This document shows positions 53,971-64,000 of a stretch of DNA of 64,000 nt, piece by piece. Position 1 is the stretch's first letter. Each line of letters opens with the position of its first letter. A program made the translations under genes and the position numbers. The stretch lies in the NCBI GenBank assembly GCA_038064835.1, contig JBBTSD010000006.1, positions 7,669 through 71,668 of the forward strand. The letters are read 5' to 3'. Origin of the DNA: Patescibacteria group bacterium. GTDB lineage: Bacteria > Patescibacteriota > Minisyncoccia > Phycocordibacterales > UBA2100. The notes below the pieces were generated by a model. That model worked only from the letters and a program-made list of their open reading frames with translations. It searched no databases and was not told the DNA's origin.

Positions 53971-55326
53971 CTACTCTTCCTTGGTTAGGCGGTTATCAAT
54001 ACGGGTCATGTCTCGCGGGAACGATGAAGCTTCTTTTACATTTGCGAGATTGAGCATGCGCGCGGTGATTCGTTCGAGCCCGGTAGAACACCCTCCATGT
54101 GGAGGCATCCCGTATTTGAATGCTTGCAGGTAGAACGAAAACTTTTCTGGGTCCATGCCGCGTTCGGTCATTACCGCAACTAGTTCGTCGTAATCGTGGA
54201 TGCGTTGTGCGCCGCTGTTTATTTCCAGTCCCTTAAAAAGCAAATCGAAACTTCGCGAAAACCCAGGCATCGCTGGATCAGGGTGTGTGTAGAACGCTCG
54301 CTTGCGCGTTGGGAAATGTGTAATGAATACAAAATCTGAGCCATGCTCTTTCCGTGCCCATTCGCAAATCTGTCGTTCGTGCTCGGGTTCAAGATCAAGT
54401 TCACCCACTGCTTTTTCACCAAATTCGCGTTCGATAATTTCCTGTGCTTCAGTCAGTGTAAAGGCCGGGAATTTAACAGCTGGCAAAAGAGGAGCGGCGA
54501 CACCCAGGCGAACAAGGGCGCCTGAATGCTTCTCGATAACCCTCGTTGCAATGTGTCGCATTACATCTTCGAGGACCGACATAACCTCTCGATGATCATG
54601 CACAAATCCCATTTCAAACTCCATCTGCGTAATTTCACTCAAATGGCGTGTAGTTGCGCTCTTCTCTCCGCGAAAAGTTTTGGCGATAGTCATCACCCGC
54701 TCAAAAGGCCCGACCATAATTTGCTTGTATAGCTGACCGCTCGTTGCAAGGAACGCGGTCTTCCCGTAATAGTCGTCAATTTTAAAAGCTGCTGCGCCCC
54801 CTTCTGCATCGCCGCCAACAAGCACGGGCGCCTGAAACTCTACAAAATCCCAAGAAACAAGTGAGTCACGAAACGCTTGAAGAATGGTTGCTTGCACGCG
54901 AAAGATATCGCGAGTGCGCTCGCGTCGCAAAGTAAGTGGCAGGTAATCAAAGTGTGTATCGATGTTGAGATCAGCATCCTTCTCGAAAGGAAGTTCTTTC
55001 GCCTTGGAAAGAACAGAGATTGATTCAACGCCAAGCTCGATAGATCCATTAAACTCATCTTTTCGCATTTTCTCTGGTCGCTCTTTTACCTCACCAACTA
55101 CCTCCACGCACCATTCGGTCCGCAAATCAGGTGCAACTTGGAAAACACCTTCGTCTTTTCCGTTTGCGACAGCTTGCACAGTGCCACTTCCATCACGAAG
55201 TACCAAAAAGATAAGCTTTCCGTGATTACGGCGCACATCGACCCATCCAGACACAGAGACTTTCTGGCCAATTTTTCCTGTGAGGTCTTTAATGTGTGTA
55301 CGATCCATAAAATTATAATGTACCAA
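53971..55326 (-). CDS. aspS: Class IIb aminoacyl-tRNA synthetase, archaeal/eukaryotic-type AspRS (possibly non-discriminating) or AsnRS
   Basis: N-terminal OB-fold anticodon domain, motif 2 FRGEKSATTRHLSEITQMEFEMGF and motif 3 GMPPHGGCSTGLERITARML. AspRS and AsnRS cannot be separated by eye. Confidence 0.75.
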   Translation of the reverse strand: MVHYNFMDRTHIKDLTGKIGQKVSVSGWVDVRRNHGKLIFLVLRDGSGTVQAVANGKDEGVFQVAPDLRTEWCVEVVGEVKERPEKMRKDEFNGSIELGVESISVLSKAKELPFEKDADLNIDTHFDYLPLTLRRERTRDIFRVQATILQAFRDSLVSWDFVEFQAPVLVGGDAEGGAAAFKIDDYYGKTAFLATSGQLYKQIMVGPFERVMTIAKTFRGEKSATTRHLSEITQMEFEMGFVHDHREVMSVLEDVMRHIATRVIEKHSGALVRLGVAAPLLPAVKFPAFTLTEAQEIIEREFGEKAVGELDLEPEHERQICEWARKEHGSDFVFITHFPTRKRAFYTHPDPAMPGFSRSFDLLFKGLEINSGAQRIHDYDELVAVMTERGMDPEKFSFYLQAFKYGMPPHGGCSTGLERITARMLNLANVKEASSFPRDMTRIDNRLTKEE

Positions 55327-55329
55327 CGA

Positions 55330-56265
55330 TTACAGTACTACGCCAATTCGTTCACGCACGGTGGCCATTTTGATAGAAGCAACGGCGCGCGCCTTGTCGC
55401 TCCCCTCTCTCAGAATCGCACGCACCTCGTCATCTGTTATTTCCGAACGGCGCTCGCGCATGGGCGCAACCACCGATTCGATGTCTTGAATCAAAGCCTC
55501 TTTCAATGCCTTGTAGTTGTTTTGATTGGCATCATACAGCATCTCAAGAGAGGCACTGTCTTTGAAATGCGAGTGAATGGCGTATACATGTTCAGGACGC
55601 CCCCCAGCAGAATCAGTTACAATCGACATAACCGCCTTGGCGATCTCGTCCTTGGTTCCAAAAAGCGGAATTGTGTTCCCGTAACTTTTGCTCATCTTTT
55701 TGCCATCCGTCCCAGGTAAAATCGCTGTCGCTTCTTGGATAAATTCCTTAGGTTCTTTGAAAGTGTCTCCGTACGCTTTGTTAAATTTTGCCGCCGCCTC
55801 GCGCGCATATTCGATATGCTGGCGCTGGTCGGCGCCCACAGGCACGACATCCGTATCGTAAAGCAAGATATCTGCCGCCATAAGCATGGGGTAGTTAAAA
55901 AGACCGGCGTTTGCCTCGAGTCCTTTCGCAATTTTATCTTTGTAGGCGTGCGAGAGCTCTAAAAACGGCACAGTGACCAGGCATTCAAAAATCCAGGCCA
56001 ACTCGGTATGTTCTTGCACTTGTGATTGCTGAAAAATAACTGCCTTCTGTGGATCAATGCCCGCAGCAACATAATCTCGCACAACACTTGCAATATTCTG
56101 AGAAAGCAACTTTGAGTCTTTGAGCGAAGTGAGTGCGTGGTAGTCGACGACCATGAGAAAACTCTCGTACTGGCTATACATGTCAGCAAAGGGCTTCAGG
56201 GCACCCAGATAGTTCCCAATATGAAGGTTGCCTGATGGCTGAAGACCCGTGAGTAATCTCTTCAT
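55330..56265 (-). CDS. trpS: Tryptophanyl-tRNA synthetase
   Basis: LTGLQPSGNLHIGNYLGAL (HIGH) and KMSKS. Confidence 0.9.
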   Translation of the reverse strand: MKRLLTGLQPSGNLHIGNYLGALKPFADMYSQYESFLMVVDYHALTSLKDSKLLSQNIASVVRDYVAAGIDPQKAVIFQQSQVQEHTELAWIFECLVTVPFLELSHAYKDKIAKGLEANAGLFNYPMLMAADILLYDTDVVPVGADQRQHIEYAREAAAKFNKAYGDTFKEPKEFIQEATAILPGTDGKKMSKSYGNTIPLFGTKDEIAKAVMSIVTDSAGGRPEHVYAIHSHFKDSASLEMLYDANQNNYKALKEALIQDIESVVAPMRERRSEITDDEVRAILREGSDKARAVASIKMATVRERIGVVL

Positions 56266-56289: not shown

Positions 56290-57945
56290 TTAATTTCCAG
56301 CGCGAGTTTCCGGAGAAGACGCCTGGTCAAAGTCTATAAGGTAGAGTCTGGGCACTCGTGTGAAATCTGGCTCTCCATTTTCTTTTCGAAAAAACCGAAG
56401 GACAAAATTATGACGGTGGGCGTGACCGTGATTTATGGTCTGCGATCTCAGGACTTTCAATATTTTATCCTCCTGTTCGTAAAGGTCAGCTCGAAAAGTT
56501 CCGTTCATGTCGAGCCATTGCTGGAGGTTTATATCCAGAACCCCCGCATACACATCCACCAAACCTTTGCGATTGAGGCGGTATGACTGGATTGGCTCGA
56601 TTGGAACATAGTCAAAGCCCGCCGCACGCCATAAAATATGTCCTTCAAAAAGTTTTTTCCATGCCAAGAACGCGTCCGCCGGAATGTGTCGCACAATCAA
56701 GTGATTTTTGAGTGGGCCTCCGACAAGAGTTGTTTCAGAGCCAGTTTTTGCAAACGGTCTCCGAGCAATCTGTTTTGAATTTAGTGTTGTGTCTTTGTCG
56801 TACAGTGGTGGTTCTACCAGCTCGGTGGCACAGTGTTTCATCGCTAAGGCTAACAATGCATTCTTGGAATTTTCAGGGGCATGCGCAATGAGGCGAAGGG
56901 CCGCGCGCCGCTCTAACTCATTGGTACCCATAATAGAGGCTTCTATTCGCTTGGCCGCGATTGGTGAAAGTGTCTCGCGCTCTTTAGTCGATCCCAAGCT
57001 GAGTAGTGCCAAAAGTACTGGTCGCATTACTTCGGGCGATACACGTTCGAGAGCCACCCGAATGAGATCTAGCACTTCTGAAGCGCGGGCGTACTTAATG
57101 AGGTCGACCGCCACTTTCTGCTGTCCTCTATCATTACTCAATAACCGCGTTTTGATACCCTGCTCAAAAAGTGCTTGTATTTTTCTATTGTTTGCATGAT
57201 CAGGAATCAGTCTGCCGACAATTGCAAAAGTGCCTGGAGTAGGAAGTGCCAAAGCTATGCGAAGCAGAGTTGGCGCCACTTTCGAAGAGGTGAATCTGAT
57301 TAGTTTGGTTGCGTCCTCTTGTCTTGCATTGTCCGAGACATCACTTAGATTTTCCTGAATTTTTTGAGTTAATAGTTTCTCCAGCCGTACCAGCTTATCA
57401 CCTATAAAAAAATTCATATTCTTAGCCGCTAGCAGTCTTTGTTCAGGAGTCCCTGTCGTAATCCACTGTTCCAGGCGGTCAGCTAGCGGTGTGTATAGAT
57501 TCTTTAAATGAGGACCTTGCACCAACATTGTCAGAATACTTAGCGCGGCAGTAATAACCGTATGATCGGTGTCGTTGAGCCCAATTTCCAGGAACACTGC
57601 TACTTCACTTTCCGGAACTCGGGTGAGCATTTTCACAGCCCGTACTCGTACTGTTGGGTCGGGACTTGCAAGCATTTCCCGCACGAGCCGCGTGACGGTC
57701 TCGCCATCCATGGTGGACAAGGAGCGCTCGATAATTTCGTGCGGGCTGAGGAGAGGCACTCCACCCGCGTTTTGGCGCATGGCGAGCTCCCGAATGGCCT
57801 GGTCTTGGGTTCGGTCGCGTTCGTACCGTGCTATGTCACTGGCAGTAATTTTCGCATGACCCGAAATTTCATACATGGAAAGTGGCGCATTCCCCAAACC
57901 TTCAGCAGGTCTCCTGTTTGTCTGGGACGGCTGATTTTCAGGCAT
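56290..57945 (-). CDS. HEAT/ARM-like alpha-solenoid protein with a C-terminal atypical protein-kinase-like domain
   Basis: Repetitive helical N-terminus. The C-terminus has a catalytic-loop-like INHGHAHRHNFVL (HGD-x-H-x-x-N with Asp replaced by His) and a DFG-like LIDFDQAS. Confidence 0.5.
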   Translation of the reverse strand: MPENQPSQTNRRPAEGLGNAPLSMYEISGHAKITASDIARYERDRTQDQAIRELAMRQNAGGVPLLSPHEIIERSLSTMDGETVTRLVREMLASPDPTVRVRAVKMLTRVPESEVAVFLEIGLNDTDHTVITAALSILTMLVQGPHLKNLYTPLADRLEQWITTGTPEQRLLAAKNMNFFIGDKLVRLEKLLTQKIQENLSDVSDNARQEDATKLIRFTSSKVAPTLLRIALALPTPGTFAIVGRLIPDHANNRKIQALFEQGIKTRLLSNDRGQQKVAVDLIKYARASEVLDLIRVALERVSPEVMRPVLLALLSLGSTKERETLSPIAAKRIEASIMGTNELERRAALRLIAHAPENSKNALLALAMKHCATELVEPPLYDKDTTLNSKQIARRPFAKTGSETTLVGGPLKNHLIVRHIPADAFLAWKKLFEGHILWRAAGFDYVPIEPIQSYRLNRKGLVDVYAGVLDINLQQWLDMNGTFRADLYEQEDKILKVLRSQTINHGHAHRHNFVLRFFRKENGEPDFTRVPRLYLIDFDQASSPETRAGN

Positions 57946-57959
57946 GGCACAGTATAGCC

Positions 57960-59597
57960 CTAAATAGTTGGCAGAGAAATCACGAATGTTGAGCCCTTCC
58001 CTTCTCCGTCTGAAAATACACTAATTACTCCACGATGAGCCTGGATCATTTCTTTGGCGACATACAAACCCAGGCCGCTACCGGTAACATTTATATCTTT
58101 CGCATTGCGGGCTCGCACAAACTTATCAAAAAGCTTATTGAGCGATTCTTTTGGTATGCCAATGCCAGTGTCCTTGATTTGTATGCTCGCAGTTTTTCGT
58201 TTTACATCACAGGAAAGACCGACGGTAATCGATCCTTGTGCAGTGTATTTTATTGAATTGTCGACTAAATTACTGATAACATGCTGTAATTTACCAGCGT
58301 CTGCTTGCACCATACATTGCGCTGTCATTTGTGGGACATACGAGAGATCGAGGCCTTTGTTTCTGGCGCTCATCGTGAGCTCGGTAATAGAAGCTTGCAC
58401 CAATTTCTGCAGGTCGGTTGGCGTCAGTCGGTACTCCAGCCGACCCTGCTCTATTTTCGAGACATTCAAGAAATCTTCAACAATCTGGGCCATACGCGAG
58501 CTCGAAGTGAAAATATTTTCGACTACTTCTTTTGGTTCAGGATTTAAGATCCCGTACGACCCTTCAATGAGAAGTGAAGCGTATCCACGAATTGCGGCCA
58601 GTGGCGTACGCAACTGATGGGAGGCAATGGATAAAAACTCTGATTTCTGGCGATCCAGTTCGCGCAGTCGCCCGTTCGCCTTGGTGAGCTGTGTGGCAAG
58701 TGCCTGGACCTGCTCGCGCAAACGCACTTCACGAATGACGCTTTGAATCAATAGAAAGCCAAATCCTAGTACCGACACAAAAACAGCTGTGCGGAAAATC
58801 ATTTCAGAAAGATCCGATGCCGCGACCAACTCGACGAGCGCGATACCTGCAAGCACACTGGCAAATATTTCTGTAGAAAGAATGCGAACATTCAACAGGT
58901 GGTGCTTGATAATCGCATAGGTCGTCAGCACTATGTATGGAAATGTAAAGAGACCGGCGTACGGAGCATAGGTTGCATTGCCTAGAATGGCAGGCCCGAC
59001 AAAATTAAACAGGATGATAAGGAGATAAGTAATACTCGCACCAAGAAGAACTAGCCAAAATTGTGGACGCTTCTGGCGGTCCTGCTTCAGTGCGTGTAAG
59101 AATAGAAATAGTAATCCTGCCCCATGGAATCCAACCGTTGCTAGGCCAAAGAGCGGTATTGCCGGACCGTTCGTTACATTTGCAACACCCGCTGTAAATC
59201 CTGAAACACTTTCGAATATTAGTGGCGTTAGTGTTAGGAACGAAACAATGCCAGCAAATGGCAAAACACCAGCATAAAACCATAAGGGGAGCCTCACCTT
59301 TTCTTGAGGAAAAACGAAAAAGAGCAAGAATGAAAAAAAAGCGTGCCAGACTGCCAAAAACACAGCCCCGCGCAGGGTCCATAATGCGACTTCCGTATTC
59401 TCCAATCGAAACACTGCCAGGTTAAAGACACCCCAACCGATGACCGAAAAGGCCGCGGCAAGAAATGCCTGGTTAGTGATACTCCGTGTATCGCTAAAGT
59501 AAGCCACTATACCAAGTGTGCCGATTCCGATTGCCATAAGGCCAATCAAAAGAATGTCGATGTTGCCTCCCGATGTAATCGAGCTAAGTATATTCAT
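57960..59597 (-). CDS. Sensor histidine kinase with a polytopic (about 10 TM) N-terminal sensor region
   Basis: HisKA H-box SIASHQLRTPLAAIRGYASLL and HATPase_c GSGLGLYVAKEMIQAHRGVISVFSDGEGKGSTFVISLP. No response regulator gene adjacent. Confidence 0.85.
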   Translation of the reverse strand: MNILSSITSGGNIDILLIGLMAIGIGTLGIVAYFSDTRSITNQAFLAAAFSVIGWGVFNLAVFRLENTEVALWTLRGAVFLAVWHAFFSFLLFFVFPQEKVRLPLWFYAGVLPFAGIVSFLTLTPLIFESVSGFTAGVANVTNGPAIPLFGLATVGFHGAGLLFLFLHALKQDRQKRPQFWLVLLGASITYLLIILFNFVGPAILGNATYAPYAGLFTFPYIVLTTYAIIKHHLLNVRILSTEIFASVLAGIALVELVAASDLSEMIFRTAVFVSVLGFGFLLIQSVIREVRLREQVQALATQLTKANGRLRELDRQKSEFLSIASHQLRTPLAAIRGYASLLIEGSYGILNPEPKEVVENIFTSSSRMAQIVEDFLNVSKIEQGRLEYRLTPTDLQKLVQASITELTMSARNKGLDLSYVPQMTAQCMVQADAGKLQHVISNLVDNSIKYTAQGSITVGLSCDVKRKTASIQIKDTGIGIPKESLNKLFDKFVRARNAKDINVTGSGLGLYVAKEMIQAHRGVISVFSDGEGKGSTFVISLPTI

Positions 59598-60682
59598 GAT
59601 AAGGTGCCACGCTTTGCATATTCGACAATTGGGGATTTTTTGGACGACCGGGCACTCGGTGCATCGGCGTAGCCACAGCGGAACAGCAAACCGGGGCGCA
59701 TGCCGTCGGGAATTTTAAATAAGGCCCCAAGTGAGTCATCTGCAACAATGAAGCTCTGGGCGATCTTTTGTGAAAAAAGAGACGGGACTTCCTCGCGTGC
59801 TCTCGCAGCAAGGAAAATAACACCGCCGATTGGTTGTAGTGCAAGACCATGTTCAGTGGCAGTTATCCATACCCGTAAAAGAGAACGACCAAGTTCGAAG
59901 AGTGTTCTCTCGGTCATATCTGAGATGGCAATAAGACCGCACGCACCCGCCGATGCGTAGCGCATTGCGTTTTCTGCCGCTATACGCGAGCCCATACCTA
60001 AAAAACCAGCAAGTGTGGCCACGAACGGCATGTGCGTGAACGCTTTAAAGGCGGCAAACGCAGGCGGTGTCAATTCAAGAGTTTTGACAAACATACCTTC
60101 TCGAACACGCGCCTCCTCTGCATCGTCCCATACCACATGGGTAAACATAGCTTCTCGCAACGCAGGCACCTTTAGCATGAAAGTTTCCATTTGCGTACTG
60201 GCCCGCGCGACAAGTTTCATCTGCACAGGACTGTCAATAAAGACCAGTTCAGTATGCCCTGCAAAAAGTGCAGCCTGTTGCAAATGATCTTTTATATCTT
60301 CAGCTACTTCTTTTTTTGCGTACTGCTTTCTATTGGTAGTACGCGCGAAGAGAGCATCCACGCGCGCGGAATTTTTTTCAGGCGTAGTTGGTGAGAATGT
60401 GATTTCGGCAATAGTAGGTCCTCGACGGGGATCATACACATAGCGCACCGATGATTTGAATCCAATTGTGGGCGCAAAGATACCAATCGACTCGACAACT
60501 CCTCCAACCGCAAGAACCGTTCCTCGTTCAAGGTAGTTAAAAACACTGCGGTCCTTGCCATATACAGCGCGCACAAACAGTGTCATTCCATCCCATCCAA
60601 AATCCCACGGCTGTGCATTGTGCCCTGACGGTGCTTGCACCGCCGCGTGTAGAATTTGAGCGAGCTCTTCATTGCTCAGCAT
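59594..60682 (-). CDS. Tandem nitroreductase-fold protein (Acg / SagB-type dehydrogenase-like)
   Basis: First domain SGHNAQPW; a second nitroreductase-like repeat begins near RTTNRKQY. 4-bp overlap with the histidine kinase gene. Confidence 0.6.
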   Translation of the reverse strand: MLSNEELAQILHAAVQAPSGHNAQPWDFGWDGMTLFVRAVYGKDRSVFNYLERGTVLAVGGVVESIGIFAPTIGFKSSVRYVYDPRRGPTIAEITFSPTTPEKNSARVDALFARTTNRKQYAKKEVAEDIKDHLQQAALFAGHTELVFIDSPVQMKLVARASTQMETFMLKVPALREAMFTHVVWDDAEEARVREGMFVKTLELTPPAFAAFKAFTHMPFVATLAGFLGMGSRIAAENAMRYASAGACGLIAISDMTERTLFELGRSLLRVWITATEHGLALQPIGGVIFLAARAREEVPSLFSQKIAQSFIVADDSLGALFKIPDGMRPGLLFRCGYADAPSARSSKKSPIVEYAKRGTLS

Positions 60683-60705
60683 CAGTACAGTATAACAGGA
60701 TGAAA

Positions 60706-62103
60706 TTAGGCAAAAACAATTCGAGGTTTTTTCCCGTGAATACAGAGCAATGCCCGGTCTTTCCCCTTTTGGGGCAACTCACCGTATGGAAATAGTTCTA
60801 TCGCCGGCTCAGATATAGTGCCAAGGTCGCCGTGCAGTTTTCGGTACTCGCTGTTGTGTAGTAATAAGCGAGCGACGACAGCTTCTCGGATTCCTTCCGT
60901 ATCGTACGTGCTGGGAGTCGCTCCTTGTTTTAATTCAACAGCGAATACCAGGCGTTCGGATACAGGCCCTGGTTCTGTCCGAGTAAAAGCAAGATACGAG
61001 CCCGTGAAGTGCTCGGGGAGTGTTATCGCAAGATGCTCGGGGTACATATTCAGCGCATAAAGCGTCAGTGCCACATCAGTACGGCCGCTTACGGCAACTA
61101 GCGGAAGTTGTTCCCAGGAAAATCGACCCTTTTTTCGTTTAAAGTCTTCCCCAACATGCAAAACGCCGCGATCGTGAGTATTGTAGCGAACAAGGGGAAC
61201 GGGCATTACTTTAGTAATCAGCAACTCCTCTCCGGCACACTCAAAGTAAACTTGCTTCGGGAGGTAGTTAAAAAGGCCACCGAGCCCACCCTGACCGGCA
61301 AAGATCTGCTCGCGCACCGATGCATCGCGCAATGCTTTTCGACGTAAGGAAATTGTTTTCGGCGTCTCAAATGCCATGGGGCCCGCTTCCGCAGATCCGT
61401 ACAGGTTAATTACACGGTTATCTGCGCCAGGTCGCCCAATAAGCGTTTGCATCTCGGCACGCCACTCTTCTGAATGTTTGTCTCCTGCGGTAAGTATAAA
61501 AAGCGAGGGGTGCGTAATCACATCGTCCGTGTCCATAGTAAACCGACGCACAATGTCCAACAGAAAAGGCGGGTAACCTGCTATGACTATGTGCCTGTAT
61601 GCTGGCCCTAGTGTACGCAAAACAGAGCGAATATCTTTTTCTTCAATACCGGGCGTTGCAACACTCACCACAAAACCTACTCGGCGAAGTGCACGGCATA
61701 CATCGGCAGTAAAAGATCCTGCAATCCAAAGACCCATACCGAAAGTGACAATGACCAACGTTGGTTCTCCTCGCTTAATACCAAAAACCTGTTCAAACAA
61801 AAATCGGTGAAGGTCTGCACCATCTTGAACAGTTTTTTCGTCGCGAAACCAGAAGGTAGAGCTTCCTGATGATCCTGAGCTCGCGTATACCACCTCAGGA
61901 TTACTGAAAGCGACAATTTTTTTAAGAGAAAGGGGTTTTATATAGCTTTCCTTACTTGTGACGGGTAGCGACTCAAACCACGCCTGCGAGGGCGCGCGCG
62001 GAACCTTGATTTTGGCGCGGGCAAGTAATTGCGCGTACGGGCTAAAGCTTTTTGCGACACTATGCGCATATTTCAAAATGAAACGGGGTACCTGTTTCTT
62101 CAT
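60706..62103 (-). CDS. ANL-superfamily adenylate-forming enzyme, PaaK / coenzyme-F390-synthetase / LuxE-like
   Basis: Core motifs YASSGSSGSSTFW (S/T-S-G-T-T-G-x-P-like) and NLYGSAEAG (YG[ST]TE). Confidence 0.6.
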   Translation of the reverse strand: MKKQVPRFILKYAHSVAKSFSPYAQLLARAKIKVPRAPSQAWFESLPVTSKESYIKPLSLKKIVAFSNPEVVYASSGSSGSSTFWFRDEKTVQDGADLHRFLFEQVFGIKRGEPTLVIVTFGMGLWIAGSFTADVCRALRRVGFVVSVATPGIEEKDIRSVLRTLGPAYRHIVIAGYPPFLLDIVRRFTMDTDDVITHPSLFILTAGDKHSEEWRAEMQTLIGRPGADNRVINLYGSAEAGPMAFETPKTISLRRKALRDASVREQIFAGQGGLGGLFNYLPKQVYFECAGEELLITKVMPVPLVRYNTHDRGVLHVGEDFKRKKGRFSWEQLPLVAVSGRTDVALTLYALNMYPEHLAITLPEHFTGSYLAFTRTEPGPVSERLVFAVELKQGATPSTYDTEGIREAVVARLLLHNSEYRKLHGDLGTISEPAIELFPYGELPQKGKDRALLCIHGKKPRIVFA

Positions 62104-63203
62104 AGTGATGGCGGGTTGCGAAGCGCCTTTAAGAACTGTTGAGAGGATGCCAATCGTTCCTTTTCGTGTTCAGGAGAACGGTATGAGGCGTCAAACATTT
62201 CCTCGAGTGTGAAGTGATAGCGACCGGACGGCATAGGTACTTTTGTCAAAATATGCCGGACGGCATAGGTGACGGCTGCTCCCGCAAACGCCGCTGAGGC
62301 ACCCAGTTGAGGCACTGAAGGTATTGTTTTGCCAATGCGTAGTAGTGAATTGCGCATGCGTTCACCAAGGTATTCTGGGCCAACAACACGCGTCGCTAGC
62401 TCGAGCCACTCGCGATAAGAAATTTTTTCAAGGTCTCCAGGACGGATGTCGTCAATTAGCCCATGGAATAACGGACGATTACGATCTTCGTCAAATCGCT
62501 CAATGTCGAGGATAATGCCATTCCCGTTGTCGGTGGCCATTACCACCGGAATTCTTTCCCGCCGGGCAACCTCGCGAAGACGAATTTTAAATGGGATGGA
62601 CTCTATTTCGTCAACACATACTGACAAGCGAGGCTTGCATAGAAAAGTTTCTATGTTGGCCATAGTAATTCCCTCAGGGAAAATTTCAATGTGCGCAAAT
62701 GGGTCTATCTCCCAAGTAGCACGTGCTGCAACTTCAACTTTCTCCGAACCGACATCCAGCACTGTCGCTCGCAGACGATTGAGATTCGTGATTTCAACCA
62801 CATCGAGGTCTGCGATTTTTAACTCTTTCGGTCCGCCACTCATGACGAGTGTCTGGAGCACTGCAGAGCCGACTGATAACCCCGCAATGCCCACTCTTCC
62901 CTTTCTAAATTCCTGCTGCTCAGTGGCAAGGATAACTTCTCGATTTCGTGCCGTACGAAGTGTAAAGTAATCTTGTTCATTCAGGGTGTGCACTACTGTG
63001 TTGCGCCACGGGAAGTAGATATAGACACCCCGGTCAGCATAAGTGCCCATGAACTTTTCTTCTTGCTGAGCCCTTTCCGGGCCTTGCTTAGGTAGTGTCG
63101 GATTTACCACGGCGCACAATTCGAGTACTGCCGATGTGTATGCGTCAACAATACACACTTGTGCTGGTAGTGCATCTCTATCGATAATGCGAGGGCGCTC
63201 CAT
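62100..63203 (-). CDS. ThiF/MoeB/HesA-family E1-like adenylyltransferase with an extra N-terminal region of about 100 aa
   Basis: Rossmann motif IAGLSVGSAVLQTLVMSGG and downstream E1-like core. 4-bp overlap with the ANL gene. Confidence 0.6.
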   Translation of the reverse strand: MERPRIIDRDALPAQVCIVDAYTSAVLELCAVVNPTLPKQGPERAQQEEKFMGTYADRGVYIYFPWRNTVVHTLNEQDYFTLRTARNREVILATEQQEFRKGRVGIAGLSVGSAVLQTLVMSGGPKELKIADLDVVEITNLNRLRATVLDVGSEKVEVAARATWEIDPFAHIEIFPEGITMANIETFLCKPRLSVCVDEIESIPFKIRLREVARRERIPVVMATDNGNGIILDIERFDEDRNRPLFHGLIDDIRPGDLEKISYREWLELATRVVGPEYLGERMRNSLLRIGKTIPSVPQLGASAAFAGAAVTYAVRHILTKVPMPSGRYHFTLEEMFDASYRSPEHEKERLASSQQFLKALRNPPSL

Positions 63204-63208
63204 AGTAC

Positions 63209-64000
63209 TTAAAGAGGTCGCAAAGAATCAGCGAGGTTGTTGAGTTCGGTAGTCAGCGTGCGGTCGGCAATCACAGCTTTTATTTGTGCTCGCGTATCAC
63301 GATAGAGCTCTCGACCACTGGTTGACAACATTTTTTCTATACCAAGCAAATCAACCGCCTGCGCAAGCGTTACCATTTCTATTGCAAGTACGGTATAGGC
63401 GTTTTCAGTGACCTTGGCCGTAATGAGCGCGGCGTCAGTGCCCATGCTCACTACATCTTGATTGTCCCCATTAGTAGGAATGGAGTGGAGAGAATGCGGA
63501 TATCCGAGTGACTGATTCAGTGCGGTTGTTGAAGTCGCAACAAACTGAAGACCTTGCAAGCCCATAGAAAGGCCGGGTGTCTGCATATTTAAAAATGGCG
63601 CAAATGAATGATTCACATTTTTGTTAAGGAAGTAGTTCACGCGTCTTTCGGACAACATTGTTATCTTGGCCAGACCAACTTTCATGTGATCAACTGCGGT
63701 GGCAACATAATCGCCATGGAAATTTCCTCCATGCAAAAATCGTGTCGTTTTTTTGTCGAGAATCGGGTTATCGGTCACTGAGTTCATTTCAATCTCAACA
63801 ACTCGTTTTGCATTCTGTATCGTCTCATACGCAGGCCCAAGAATTTGCGGAATACAGCGCATTGAATATACCTCTTGCAACACTATGTCAGTCGCGTAGG
63901 TTTCTTTTTGAATTTGCACATACTTCTTCATGTGCTCGCGAGCCCGCATTCGTTTTGAATCTGCTGTTGCTTTGCGCATCAATTCTGCGATGTATATTTG
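63209..64000 (-). CDS. Aromatic amino acid ammonia-lyase (HAL/PAL/TAL family); C-terminal half only, gene continues past the window edge
   Basis: YSMRCIPQILGP, GGNFHGD, SERR, HPHSLHSIPTNGDNQDVVSMG and LAIEMV blocks match histidine/phenylalanine ammonia-lyases. The frame stays open upstream to base 64000, so the MIO-forming N-terminus is outside the window. Confidence 0.75.
   Translation of the reverse strand, partial: QIYIAELMRKATADSKRMRAREHMKKYVQIQKETYATDIVLQEVYSMRCIPQILGPAYETIQNAKRVVEIEMNSVTDNPILDKKTTRFLHGGNFHGDYVATAVDHMKVGLAKITMLSERRVNYFLNKNVNHSFAPFLNMQTPGLSMGLQGLQFVATSTTALNQSLGYPHSLHSIPTNGDNQDVVSMGTDAALITAKVTENAYTVLAIEMVTLAQAVDLLGIEKMLSTSGRELYRDTRAQIKAVIADRTLTTELNNLADSLRPL

Follow-up and report, generated by a model that had tools for sequence, protein, structure and literature searches.

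A candidate oxazolone-type pathway linked to a membrane sensor kinase in a patescibacterial operon

Patescibacteria are thought to have almost no secondary metabolism, and the question raised here is what such a bacterium would make with an ammonia-lyase, two adenylating enzymes and a flavin-dependent oxidase that are encoded next to a sensor kinase. The genes lie at the end of a 64-kb stretch of a contig from an ultrasmall groundwater member of the Patescibacteria (Patescibacteria group bacterium; GenBank assembly GCA_038064835.1, contig JBBTSD010000006.1). This whole stretch is called the window, and coordinates are window positions unless a locus is named. Five genes follow one another on the minus strand in the list of open reading frames (ORFs), spanning 57960-64000, and encode the 3' part of a MIO-type aromatic amino-acid ammonia-lyase or aminomutase, a stand-alone ThiF-like adenylating cyclase, a PaaK-fold adenylate-forming ligase of the ANL superfamily, a flavin-dependent oxidase (FDO) with a double nitroreductase (NR) fold, and a sensor histidine kinase (HK). 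We propose, with a probability of about 0.55, that this operon specifies a variant of the oxazolone/N-acyl-dehydroamino-acid pathway together with a dedicated membrane sensor kinase. The cyclase and oxidase core of such a pathway is already known, whereas the way in which the N-acyl amino acid is made, the link to a sensor kinase and the phylum are new.

An original prediction, made from the sequence of the window, had described four enzyme genes with junctions of 4-6 bp and a sensor HK directly after them. The four enzyme families (lyase, ThiF, PaaK-like and nitroreductase) were borne out by Pfam, NCBIfam, a profile built for the ANL protein, and AlphaFold models compared by Foldseek. The packing is as described for the lyase and ThiF genes (a 5-bp spacer) and for the ThiF and ANL genes (a 4-bp overlap), and not for the ANL and nitroreductase genes, which are 23 bp apart. 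The kinase start codon overlaps the oxidase stop codon by 4 bp (ATGA). Scans for promoter and terminator consensus sequences gave results at chance level, and were uninformative on the extent of the transcription unit.

The four enzymes

The ThiF protein (62100..63203, minus strand, 367 aa) matches the Pfam ThiF family with an E-value of 4e-18, and scores 302 bits against the NCBIfam model NF005901, the 'Rv1355c family', over model positions 35-351 of 722, whereas the next ThiF-type model scores 69 bits. Its N-terminal domain of ~90 residues falls inside this profile. The C-terminal half of the same model is matched by the FDO (59594..60682, minus strand, 362 aa), for which Pfam gave a short nitroreductase match. 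The FDO scores 162 bits against NF005901 at model positions 373-713, 153 bits against PRK14851, which is another ThiF-nitroreductase fusion family, and 115 bits against the Acg family; in the PDB it matches Acg 2ymv with E 1.7e-5. Its gene is in the same operon as that of the ThiF protein and one gene apart, with the ANL gene in between. As judged from these profile matches, the two proteins are the split halves of an oxazolone synthetase of the Rv1355c/TrzS-OxzB type, separated by the intervening ANL gene. Rv1355c, also named TrzS, is an oxazolone synthetase composed of ThiF and flavin-oxidase domains that was characterised in 2025 and that cyclises and desaturates N-acyl-tryptophan biochemically (PMC12856293). 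The original prediction had named the families of both proteins correctly and had missed this specific identity.

Among 32 ThiF homologs, the GLSVGS nucleotide loop, an ADxD motif (D132/D134), NLNR, K155 and D198 are invariant. The same alignment contains no conserved Cys and no pair of Zn-binding CxxC motifs, and in the sole Cys-rich column (69%) the window protein has Ala. Because the residues for ATP binding and adenylation are kept and the Cys/Zn site is absent, the protein fits a cyclodehydratase of the TcdA/OxzB kind, not an activator of the E1 or sulfur-carrier kind. Residue Glu201 is the second acidic position of a DEMD motif in a by-eye alignment to DCTD of MoeB, and P0122 shares this Glu. 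The AlphaFold model (pLDDT 92) has AclA 9egb, ThiF and MoeB as its top PDB folds in Foldseek. The closest solved structure is AclA of Tenacibaculum discolor (9egb/9egc, 'in complex with substrate'; Foldseek E 3e-13, TM 0.8 on target); its function was not used in any reading given here, and no paper describing the structure was found. Alignments of the model to MccB and PaaA cover ~340-355 columns, including the N-terminal peptide-clamp regions of these proteins, at TM-scores of 0.44-0.50. The original prediction had asked whether the ThiF N-terminus resembles an E2 or ribbon-helix-helix (RHH) domain; no such similarity turned up, and no search was aimed at it.

For the ANL protein (60706..62103, minus strand, 465 aa), single-sequence searches of Pfam, NCBIfam (E <= 0.1) and the PDB returned zero matches. 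A profile of 40 homologs reached PaaK 4r1l with E 3.5e-14, and the AlphaFold model (pLDDT 85) has PaaK1 2y27 as its top Foldseek match (E 2.5e-19). The P-loop and core adenylation motifs are present, the conserved stretches being SSGSSGxPTFW, YGSADAG, RYNIHD, GRTD and a C-terminal GKKP. The closest solved relatives are CoA ligases, namely PaaK, BT_0428 and 2-hydroxyisobutyryl-CoA ligase, and the profile matches in the PDB also include the CoA-independent PaaK-family ligases NatL2 and AjiA1. Against the curated models for PaaK (TIGR02155) and FlxY, the window protein scores nothing; fused relatives reach 30-48 bits, compared with a PaaK cutoff of 646, and some members of the family match the FlxY model weakly. 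No paa catabolic genes were found near the cluster. When 1.84 billion representative proteins were searched with a profile, 951 members were found at E <= 1e-30, and by sequence the ANL protein forms a family of its own, with ~950 representatives.

The lyase gene (63209..64000, minus strand) runs past the window end, with 263 C-terminal codons inside. Four independent public contigs, which come from groundwater metagenomes of Hainich, carry the same DNA with an identical ThiF protein and extend the window (locus L001); NCBI lists their proteins under Patescibacteria group bacterium. The complete lyase has 523-549 aa (L001 2701/2779-4350), and contig Hain_H51_01um_R3_97 carries it in full. The window lyase matches Pfam Lyase_aromatic with E 7e-68. 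The full-length protein scores best against the FlxA tyrosine ammonia-lyase model (564 bits; cutoff 700), followed by hutH (421; cutoff 539) and Tyr_2_3_mutase (398; cutoff 501), and among solved structures it is closest to SgTAM 2ohy, a tyrosine aminomutase (303 bits). The MIO triad is Thr-Ser-Gly, a His occupies the substrate-selectivity position (NLVRGHAVG) at the place of SgTAM His93, and near the C-terminus the protein shares the motif NGDNQDVVSMG with SgTAM; histidine ammonia-lyases (HALs) carry NQEDH at the position of this motif. The substrate suggested by these features is most likely tyrosine. A canonical HutH within a hut operon was rejected, given the hutH score below its cutoff, the lack of hutU and hutI, and the SgTAM-like motif. 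The original prediction had named hutU and hutI upstream of a canonical hutH as the sign of histidine catabolism, and neither gene is present upstream of the lyase on the extending contigs. Its preference for a small biosynthetic pathway over catabolism has stood.

Linkage across genomes, gene fusions and the kinase

The ANL alignment, used to scan species-representative genomes, gave 398 confirmed relatives, and 80 loci were retrieved in which the other genes were sought by tblastn with the window proteins. In 71 of the 80 loci, a ThiF gene is found no more than 7 kb from the ANL gene; a kinase gene is downstream of the enzymes in 54, a nitroreductase is present in 44 (52 by clustering), and a lyase in 27. 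The joint presence of E1-like, ANL and lyase genes, which the original prediction had expected of related genomes, was thus observed. Among the hosts are Doudna-, Wildermuth-, Kaiser-, Jorgensen-, Yanofsky-, Niyogi-, Nomura- and Andersenbacteria, Paceibacterota and Saccharimonadales, with outliers in Armatimonadota, Saprospiraceae and Nocardia. The orders ThiF-ANL-NR-HK, NR-ThiF-ANL-HK, ANL-ThiF-NR-HK and ANL-NR-ThiF-HK all occur, and this permutation points to selection on linkage and not to inherited synteny alone. Because the arrangement recurs with permuted order in dozens of distant genomes, at 30-50% protein identity, it is not due to chance.

The strongest evidence that the ANL and ThiF proteins act on consecutive intermediates is the existence of natural fusions between them. 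One protein consists of a Rv1355c-type ThiF followed by ANL (P0268), another of ANL followed by ThiF (P0325), and a third of an ELFV-type amino-acid dehydrogenase, ANL and ThiF (P0338). The gene for the last was found on two independent contigs from metagenome-assembled genomes (MAGs), in the order NR, dehydrogenase-ANL-ThiF fusion, alpha/beta hydrolase and HisKA_7TM kinase. Moreover, in locus L071 the ThiF and FDO domains occur in one ORF right after the ANL gene, which is the architecture of OxzB and TrzS. The Nocardia loci were also considered as TrzS-type fusions, a reading that was rejected since the ANL gene is followed directly by a separate ThiF gene. These loci (L040, L042, L045, L046, L048 and others) have no lyase, and a gene for a large NACHT/WD40-like or CHAT-domain protein is often alongside.

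The lyase is an exchangeable accessory, present in about one-third of the loci. Four kinds of enzyme occupy a slot adjacent to the ANL gene: a MIO lyase orthologous to that of the window (~50% identity), upstream of ThiF; a second type of MIO lyase (~30% identity), between ANL and NR; a class I/II aminotransferase of the HisC family; and an ELFV dehydrogenase, for which the best model is the tryptophan dehydrogenase ScyB (293-329 bits, versus 72-79 for glutamate dehydrogenases). Two slot enzymes were found together in none of the 80 loci. All of them convert an amino acid to a carboxylic acid lacking the alpha-amino group, which is an aryl-acrylate in some cases and in others a 2-oxo acid (in its enol form, a 2-hydroxy-acrylate). 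Because every slot enzyme makes an acid of this kind, such an acid is the probable ANL substrate. In several lineages (L001, L016, L019, L028, L032, L077, L082), the cluster is located between dnaK-dnaJ and trpS/aspS-scpA-scpB (aspS/trpS in the window: 53971-56265), while the accessory deaminating gene varies. This shared neighborhood, despite the differing accessory gene, suggests vertical inheritance with the accessory swapped in place.

No member of an acyltransferase family was found in the operon, among 10 in-cluster extra proteins, or among the families that occur at least twice in 148 flanking ORFs, other parts of the genome not having been searched. Occasional extras within the clusters are S-adenosylmethionine (SAM) methyltransferases, an M19 dipeptidase-like protein and alpha/beta hydrolases, which look like tailoring enzymes of the kind found in stieleriacine clusters. 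In at least seven loci (including L035, L038, L076, L079, L098 and L123), a gene placed between those of the oxidase and the kinase encodes another protein (cluster c13, ~305-316 aa), which is conserved, has no Pfam family and carries a weak SAM-methyltransferase-like glycine motif.

The kinase (57960..59597, minus strand, 545 aa) matches Pfam HisKA and HATPase_c, and weakly HisKA_7TM (PF16927; 21.5 bits, cutoff 28.6), a family that is matched by its counterparts in L148 and L149. Hydropathy indicates 8-9 hydrophobic segments in residues 1-290 with loops of at most 36 aa, and no sizeable extracytoplasmic domain. The H-box and the ATP-binding boxes are intact. The membrane domain, whose mean column identity is 41-55%, was used alone to seed a metagenome scan as a reverse test; a 41-sequence alignment of this domain was too divergent for search patterns, and a 12-sequence subset was used instead. 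Among the 40 loci that had at least 4 kb upstream of the kinase and so could be evaluated, 31 carry at least two of the ThiF, ANL and NR genes directly upstream, 27 carry all three, and seven carry none. The kinase family and the enzymes are hence linked in both directions, since the ANL-seeded and the kinase-seeded searches agree. The kinase is a conserved member of the module and not a mere neighbor, so that the original prediction was right about its position directly after the enzymes and not about its status.

Single-domain response regulators (Response_reg, 15 matches) are the commonest Pfam family among the 148 flanking ORFs, in which bactofilin (8) and DAGK_cat (5) also recur. In L008, L013, L014 and L018 (also L005 and L061), the gene after that of the kinase encodes a single-domain response regulator of ~135 aa, and pilB and pilC, which are type IV pilus genes, come next.

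Proposed pathway and its alternatives

On the pathway that we favor, the MIO lyase would act first, releasing ammonia from an aromatic amino acid (tyrosine being the likeliest) and leaving an aryl-acrylic acid, for example p-coumarate; that the lyase feeds an acid to the ANL enzyme, as the original prediction proposed, is plausible. The ANL enzyme would then adenylate the aryl acid and join it, directly or via a thioester, to the alpha-amino group of a second amino acid, giving an N-aroyl amino acid. This step would take the place of an acyl-CoA-dependent N-acyltransferase, as the gene context, the fusions and the lack of an acyltransferase suggest. Judging from its homologs TrzS, TyzB and OxzB, the ThiF protein should adenylate the N-acyl amino acid so that the oxazolone ring closes. 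Judging likewise from the oxidase domain of TrzS and from TyzC and OxzB, the FDO should use O2 to introduce a double bond between C-alpha and C-beta. The expected product is a conjugated 2-substituted 4-ylidene-oxazolone or a ring-opened N-acyl-dehydroamino acid. An oxazolone assembled from two free acids requires that two carboxylates be activated, which matches the two adenylating enzymes in the cluster. Finally, the translationally coupled multi-pass HK may sense the hydrophobic product, or the same compound released by neighboring cells. By analogy with an autoinducer-receptor pair, sensing of a hydrophobic pathway product, the cell's own or its neighbors', is most plausibly the role of the kinase, and it is the least certain step.

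Several observations weigh against this proposal. The ANL family is uncharacterised, and its acid, its acceptor and its use of CoA are predictions. The specificity of the lyase is uncertain as to tyrosine or histidine and as to lyase or aminomutase, sequence being unable to separate the latter two, and the second type of lyase scores best against HAL models. The ThiF protein and the FDO are relatives and not equivalogs of TrzS, because their summed score (302 + 162 = 464 bits) is below the cutoff of 476 for the fusion model, and their placement is at the level of profiles, not of trees. At the position that aligns to MoeB Asp130, the window ThiF has Glu201 where at least 90% of the homologs have Asp. 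Some loci (L059, L084 and L100 among them) lack ThiF, some lack the FDO, and the Nocardia loci hold only ANL and a stand-alone Rv1355c-like ThiF, with neither oxidase nor kinase, so that the trio of ANL, ThiF and oxidase is not obligatory. The known oxidase step needs O2, and many Patescibacteria are regarded as anaerobic fermenters. An unlinked acyltransferase of the OxzA/NasY type may be encoded elsewhere in the genome. No response regulator is encoded in the 64-kb window, and the pairing of the kinase with a ligand is drawn solely from gene linkage.

An acyltransferase of that kind would be required if the chemistry were of the oxazolone type and the ANL enzyme supplied only an acyl group bound to CoA or to a carrier. 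The true CoA ligases among its closest solved relatives point in this direction, as do the acyl-CoA-dependent acyltransferases employed by every characterised oxazolone system and the precedent of flexirubin synthesis, in which a tyrosine ammonia-lyase is paired with a PaaK-like ligase, together with the weak FlxY matches of some family members. We nonetheless consider this arrangement unlikely, given that no acyltransferase was found in or beside the examined loci, that the direct ANL-ThiF fusion argues for transfer of the ANL product to ThiF without an intermediate step, and that CoA-free ligases such as NatL2 and AjiA1 exist in the PaaK family. Alternatively, the oxazolone might not be the final product. 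Oxazolones of this type are azlactones, which are chemically reactive acylating agents, and the compound could thus serve as an activated donor that places an N-acyl-dehydroamino-acid group on an amine of a protein, a lipid or the cell wall, possibly as a chromophore or ligand of the kinase. Consistent with such a role are the kinase encoded with the cluster in 54 of the 80 loci, the genes for alpha/beta hydrolases or M19 dipeptidase-like proteins within some clusters, and the report that oxazolones were undetected in producers of stieleriacine-type N-acyl dehydrotyrosines, where the role of ThiF was called enigmatic (PMC12479983). However, free oxazolones are what the characterised homologs release, hydrolases occur only sporadically within the clusters, and no conserved gene for an acceptor or a transferase was found, making an acyl-donor function distinctly improbable.

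The original prediction had also raised two possibilities in which the substrate would be a peptide or protein, namely modification of the kind seen in peptides that are made on ribosomes and modified after translation (RiPPs), a reading that also covers systems like those of thiazole/oxazole-modified microcins (TOMMs), and ubiquitin-like (Ubl) conjugation. The ThiF protein would then activate the C-terminus of a peptide or protein, the SagB-like nitroreductase would dehydrogenate, and the ANL enzyme would acylate. In the pathways of TOMMs and other RiPPs, E1-like proteins do work together with dehydrogenases of the nitroreductase fold (PMC12596934), and the structural alignments to MccB and PaaA include the peptide-clamp regions, at the low TM-scores given above. 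Nevertheless, both possibilities have to be given up as leading candidates, and we regard them as very unlikely. The operon gaps of -4 to 23 bp leave no room for a precursor gene, although small ORFs of <70 aa in related loci were not searched systematically, and YcaO, beta-grasp, E2 and JAB genes are absent from the conserved neighborhood. The ThiF protein has no conserved Cys or Zn motif, its N-terminal extension belongs to the profile of a small-molecule enzyme, Rv1355c, and the fusion to an amino-acid dehydrogenase likewise points to small-molecule substrates. Catabolism or salvage of aromatic amino acids, for example from tyrosine via coumarate to coumaroyl-CoA, with the kinase regulating uptake or degradation, is barely credible. 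A lyase and a PaaK-like ligase are indeed the first two steps of some routes for aryl-acid degradation, and genes for prephenate dehydratase and pterin-4a-carbinolamine dehydratase are occasional neighbors. Yet no hydratase, thiolase, ring-cleavage or hut genes were found in the examined neighborhoods, the ThiF protein and the FDO have no role in such routes, and most loci have no lyase while ThiF, ANL, FDO and kinase persist.

If the operon does encode an oxazolone-type pathway, several consequences follow. Oxazolone synthetases of the ThiF and nitroreductase type were recognised only in 2020-2025 and are described in the cited papers from Pseudomonadota, Actinomycetota and Planctomycetota only, and a system tied to a membrane sensor kinase would make a signaling role directly testable. 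The replacement of the acyltransferase by a PaaK-fold ligase and a deaminating enzyme predicts a new class of products, oxazolones built from two amino acids without drawing on the fatty acyl-CoA pool, and a new amide-forming activity for the uncharacterised ANL family of ~950 sequence clusters. The natural ThiF-ANL and dehydrogenase-ANL-ThiF fusions are ready-made constructs for biochemistry. Moreover, the genomes of Patescibacteria are minimal, and a pathway of four to five genes with its receptor, kept in one chromosomal neighborhood across many lineages, is probably important for their lifestyle. A further and doubtful extension is that the system is an autoinducer-receptor circuit native to Patescibacteria, in which a two-amino-acid oxazolone or N-aroyl-dehydroamino acid would be sensed by the kinase of the 7TM type, which would act via single-domain regulators on surface functions such as type IV pili. 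Episymbiotic Patescibacteria use type IV pili to find and hold their hosts. If true, this would be the first physiological role for oxazolones, and an ancient, vertically inherited signaling system.

Genomic surroundings and relation to known systems

On the extending contigs, the lyase gene is preceded by one for a multi-pass membrane protein of 170-189 aa, and this in turn by dnaJ. The membrane protein (L001 2178/2235-2747) has several hydrophobic segments and no family match, and its gene may overlap the lyase start; proteins of similar size are encoded after dnaJ in L019 and L082, and do not cluster with it by BLAST. Downstream of the kinase, a HEAT-repeat protein of 551 aa is encoded at 56290-57945 (minus strand), whose C-terminus (HGHAHRHNFVL ... 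LYLIDFDQA) resembles the catalytic loop and DFD motif of protein kinases, with His replacing the catalytic Asp. This protein was excluded as a member of the module, as its gene is not kept beside the cluster in other genomes. The 64-kb window contains no tRNA genes and, besides lacking a response regulator, no genes for PilB/PilC, an aminotransferase or an ELFV dehydrogenase. In a low-coverage contig of a sister sample (L004 1710-2815), a frameshift around residues 206-213 splits the ANL gene, and the genes on either side show 100% identity. At a coverage of ~3x, the split probably reflects misassembly and not a pseudogene.

Literature searches gave no report of this gene combination or of oxazolones in Patescibacteria. 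The ligase, the lyase, the kinase and Patescibacteria are likewise unmentioned in this context in the cited papers on oxazolones, ThiF proteins (a review) and stieleriacines (PMC12856293, PMC10404671, bioRxiv 10.1101/2020.06.11.147165, PMC12596934, PMC12479983). The closest known system is TrzAS (Rv1356c/Rv1355c), which synthesises N-acyl tryptazolones in M. tuberculosis, M. smegmatis and Rhodococcus, and in which Arg540 and Gln651 of TrzS (M. smegmatis) are needed for FMN binding and desaturation (PMC12856293). The window ThiF and FDO match the two halves of the Rv1355c model, including the N-terminal extension of ThiF, and the expected chemistry is the same, with ATP-dependent cyclisation of an N-acyl amino acid followed by its O2-dependent desaturation. 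In the window, however, the two domains are encoded by separate genes with the ANL gene between them, and there is no acyl-CoA N-acyltransferase of the TrzA type. The window instead adds a PaaK-fold ligase, an ammonia-lyase and a multi-pass HK, and its host belongs to Patescibacteria and not to Actinomycetota. The trzAS genes adjoin c-di-GMP genes, and the authors suspect a signaling role (PMC12856293). The physiological role of oxazolones is called a major unresolved question (PMC12856293, PMC12479983).

The first oxazolone synthetase was that of OxzAB from Pseudoalteromonas rubra, where OxzB is a fused ThiF-oxidase and the products are tyrazolones (bioRxiv 10.1101/2020.06.11.147165), which are also made by TyzACB of M. 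tuberculosis with adjacent TyzB and TyzC genes (PMC10404671). In both, ThiF and an oxidase of the nitroreductase superfamily produce 4-arylidene-oxazol-5-ones from N-acyl-tyrosine or N-acyl-phenylalanine, and the window proteins are likened to them via the Rv1355c-family profile only. Here too the acyl source differs, since OxzA and TyzA draw on fatty acyl-CoA, whereas in the window the predicted donor is a deaminated amino acid that the ANL enzyme would activate. The NasY-ThiF-nitroreductase clusters direct the synthesis of the N-acyl dehydrotyrosines known as stieleriacines, thalassotalic acids and kyonggic acids. These are ring-open N-acyl-dehydroamino acids with ecological effects on biofilm communities, and the producers given are Pseudomonadota, Actinomycetota and Planctomycetota only (PMC12479983). 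These clusters share with the window an operon-like arrangement of ThiF and nitroreductase and, optionally, a methyltransferase, and differ from it in having no kinase. All described oxazolone and N-acyl-dehydrotyrosine clusters contain an acyl-CoA-dependent N-acyltransferase, whether OxzA, TyzA, TrzA or NasY (PMC12856293, bioRxiv 10.1101/2020.06.11.147165, PMC12479983).

For the proposed substitute of this enzyme, partial precedents exist. PaaK1/2, BT_0428, NatL2 and AjiA1 have the ANL fold and core motifs in common with the window protein, and NatL2 and AjiA1 indicate that ligases of this subfamily can couple an activated aryl acid to a nucleophile that is not CoA. The FlxA-FlxY pair of flexirubin synthesis is a precedent for a tyrosine ammonia-lyase acting with a PaaK-like ligase. 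Unlike the PaaK and FlxY families, the family of the window ANL protein is linked or fused to ThiF. For the kinase, the comparison is with agrBDCA and comCDE, and the analogy is functional, as there is no sequence relationship and the window operon includes no response regulator. In those systems, as is proposed here, biosynthesis genes for a small signal are co-transcribed with the gene for a polytopic membrane HK that has no large extracellular domain.

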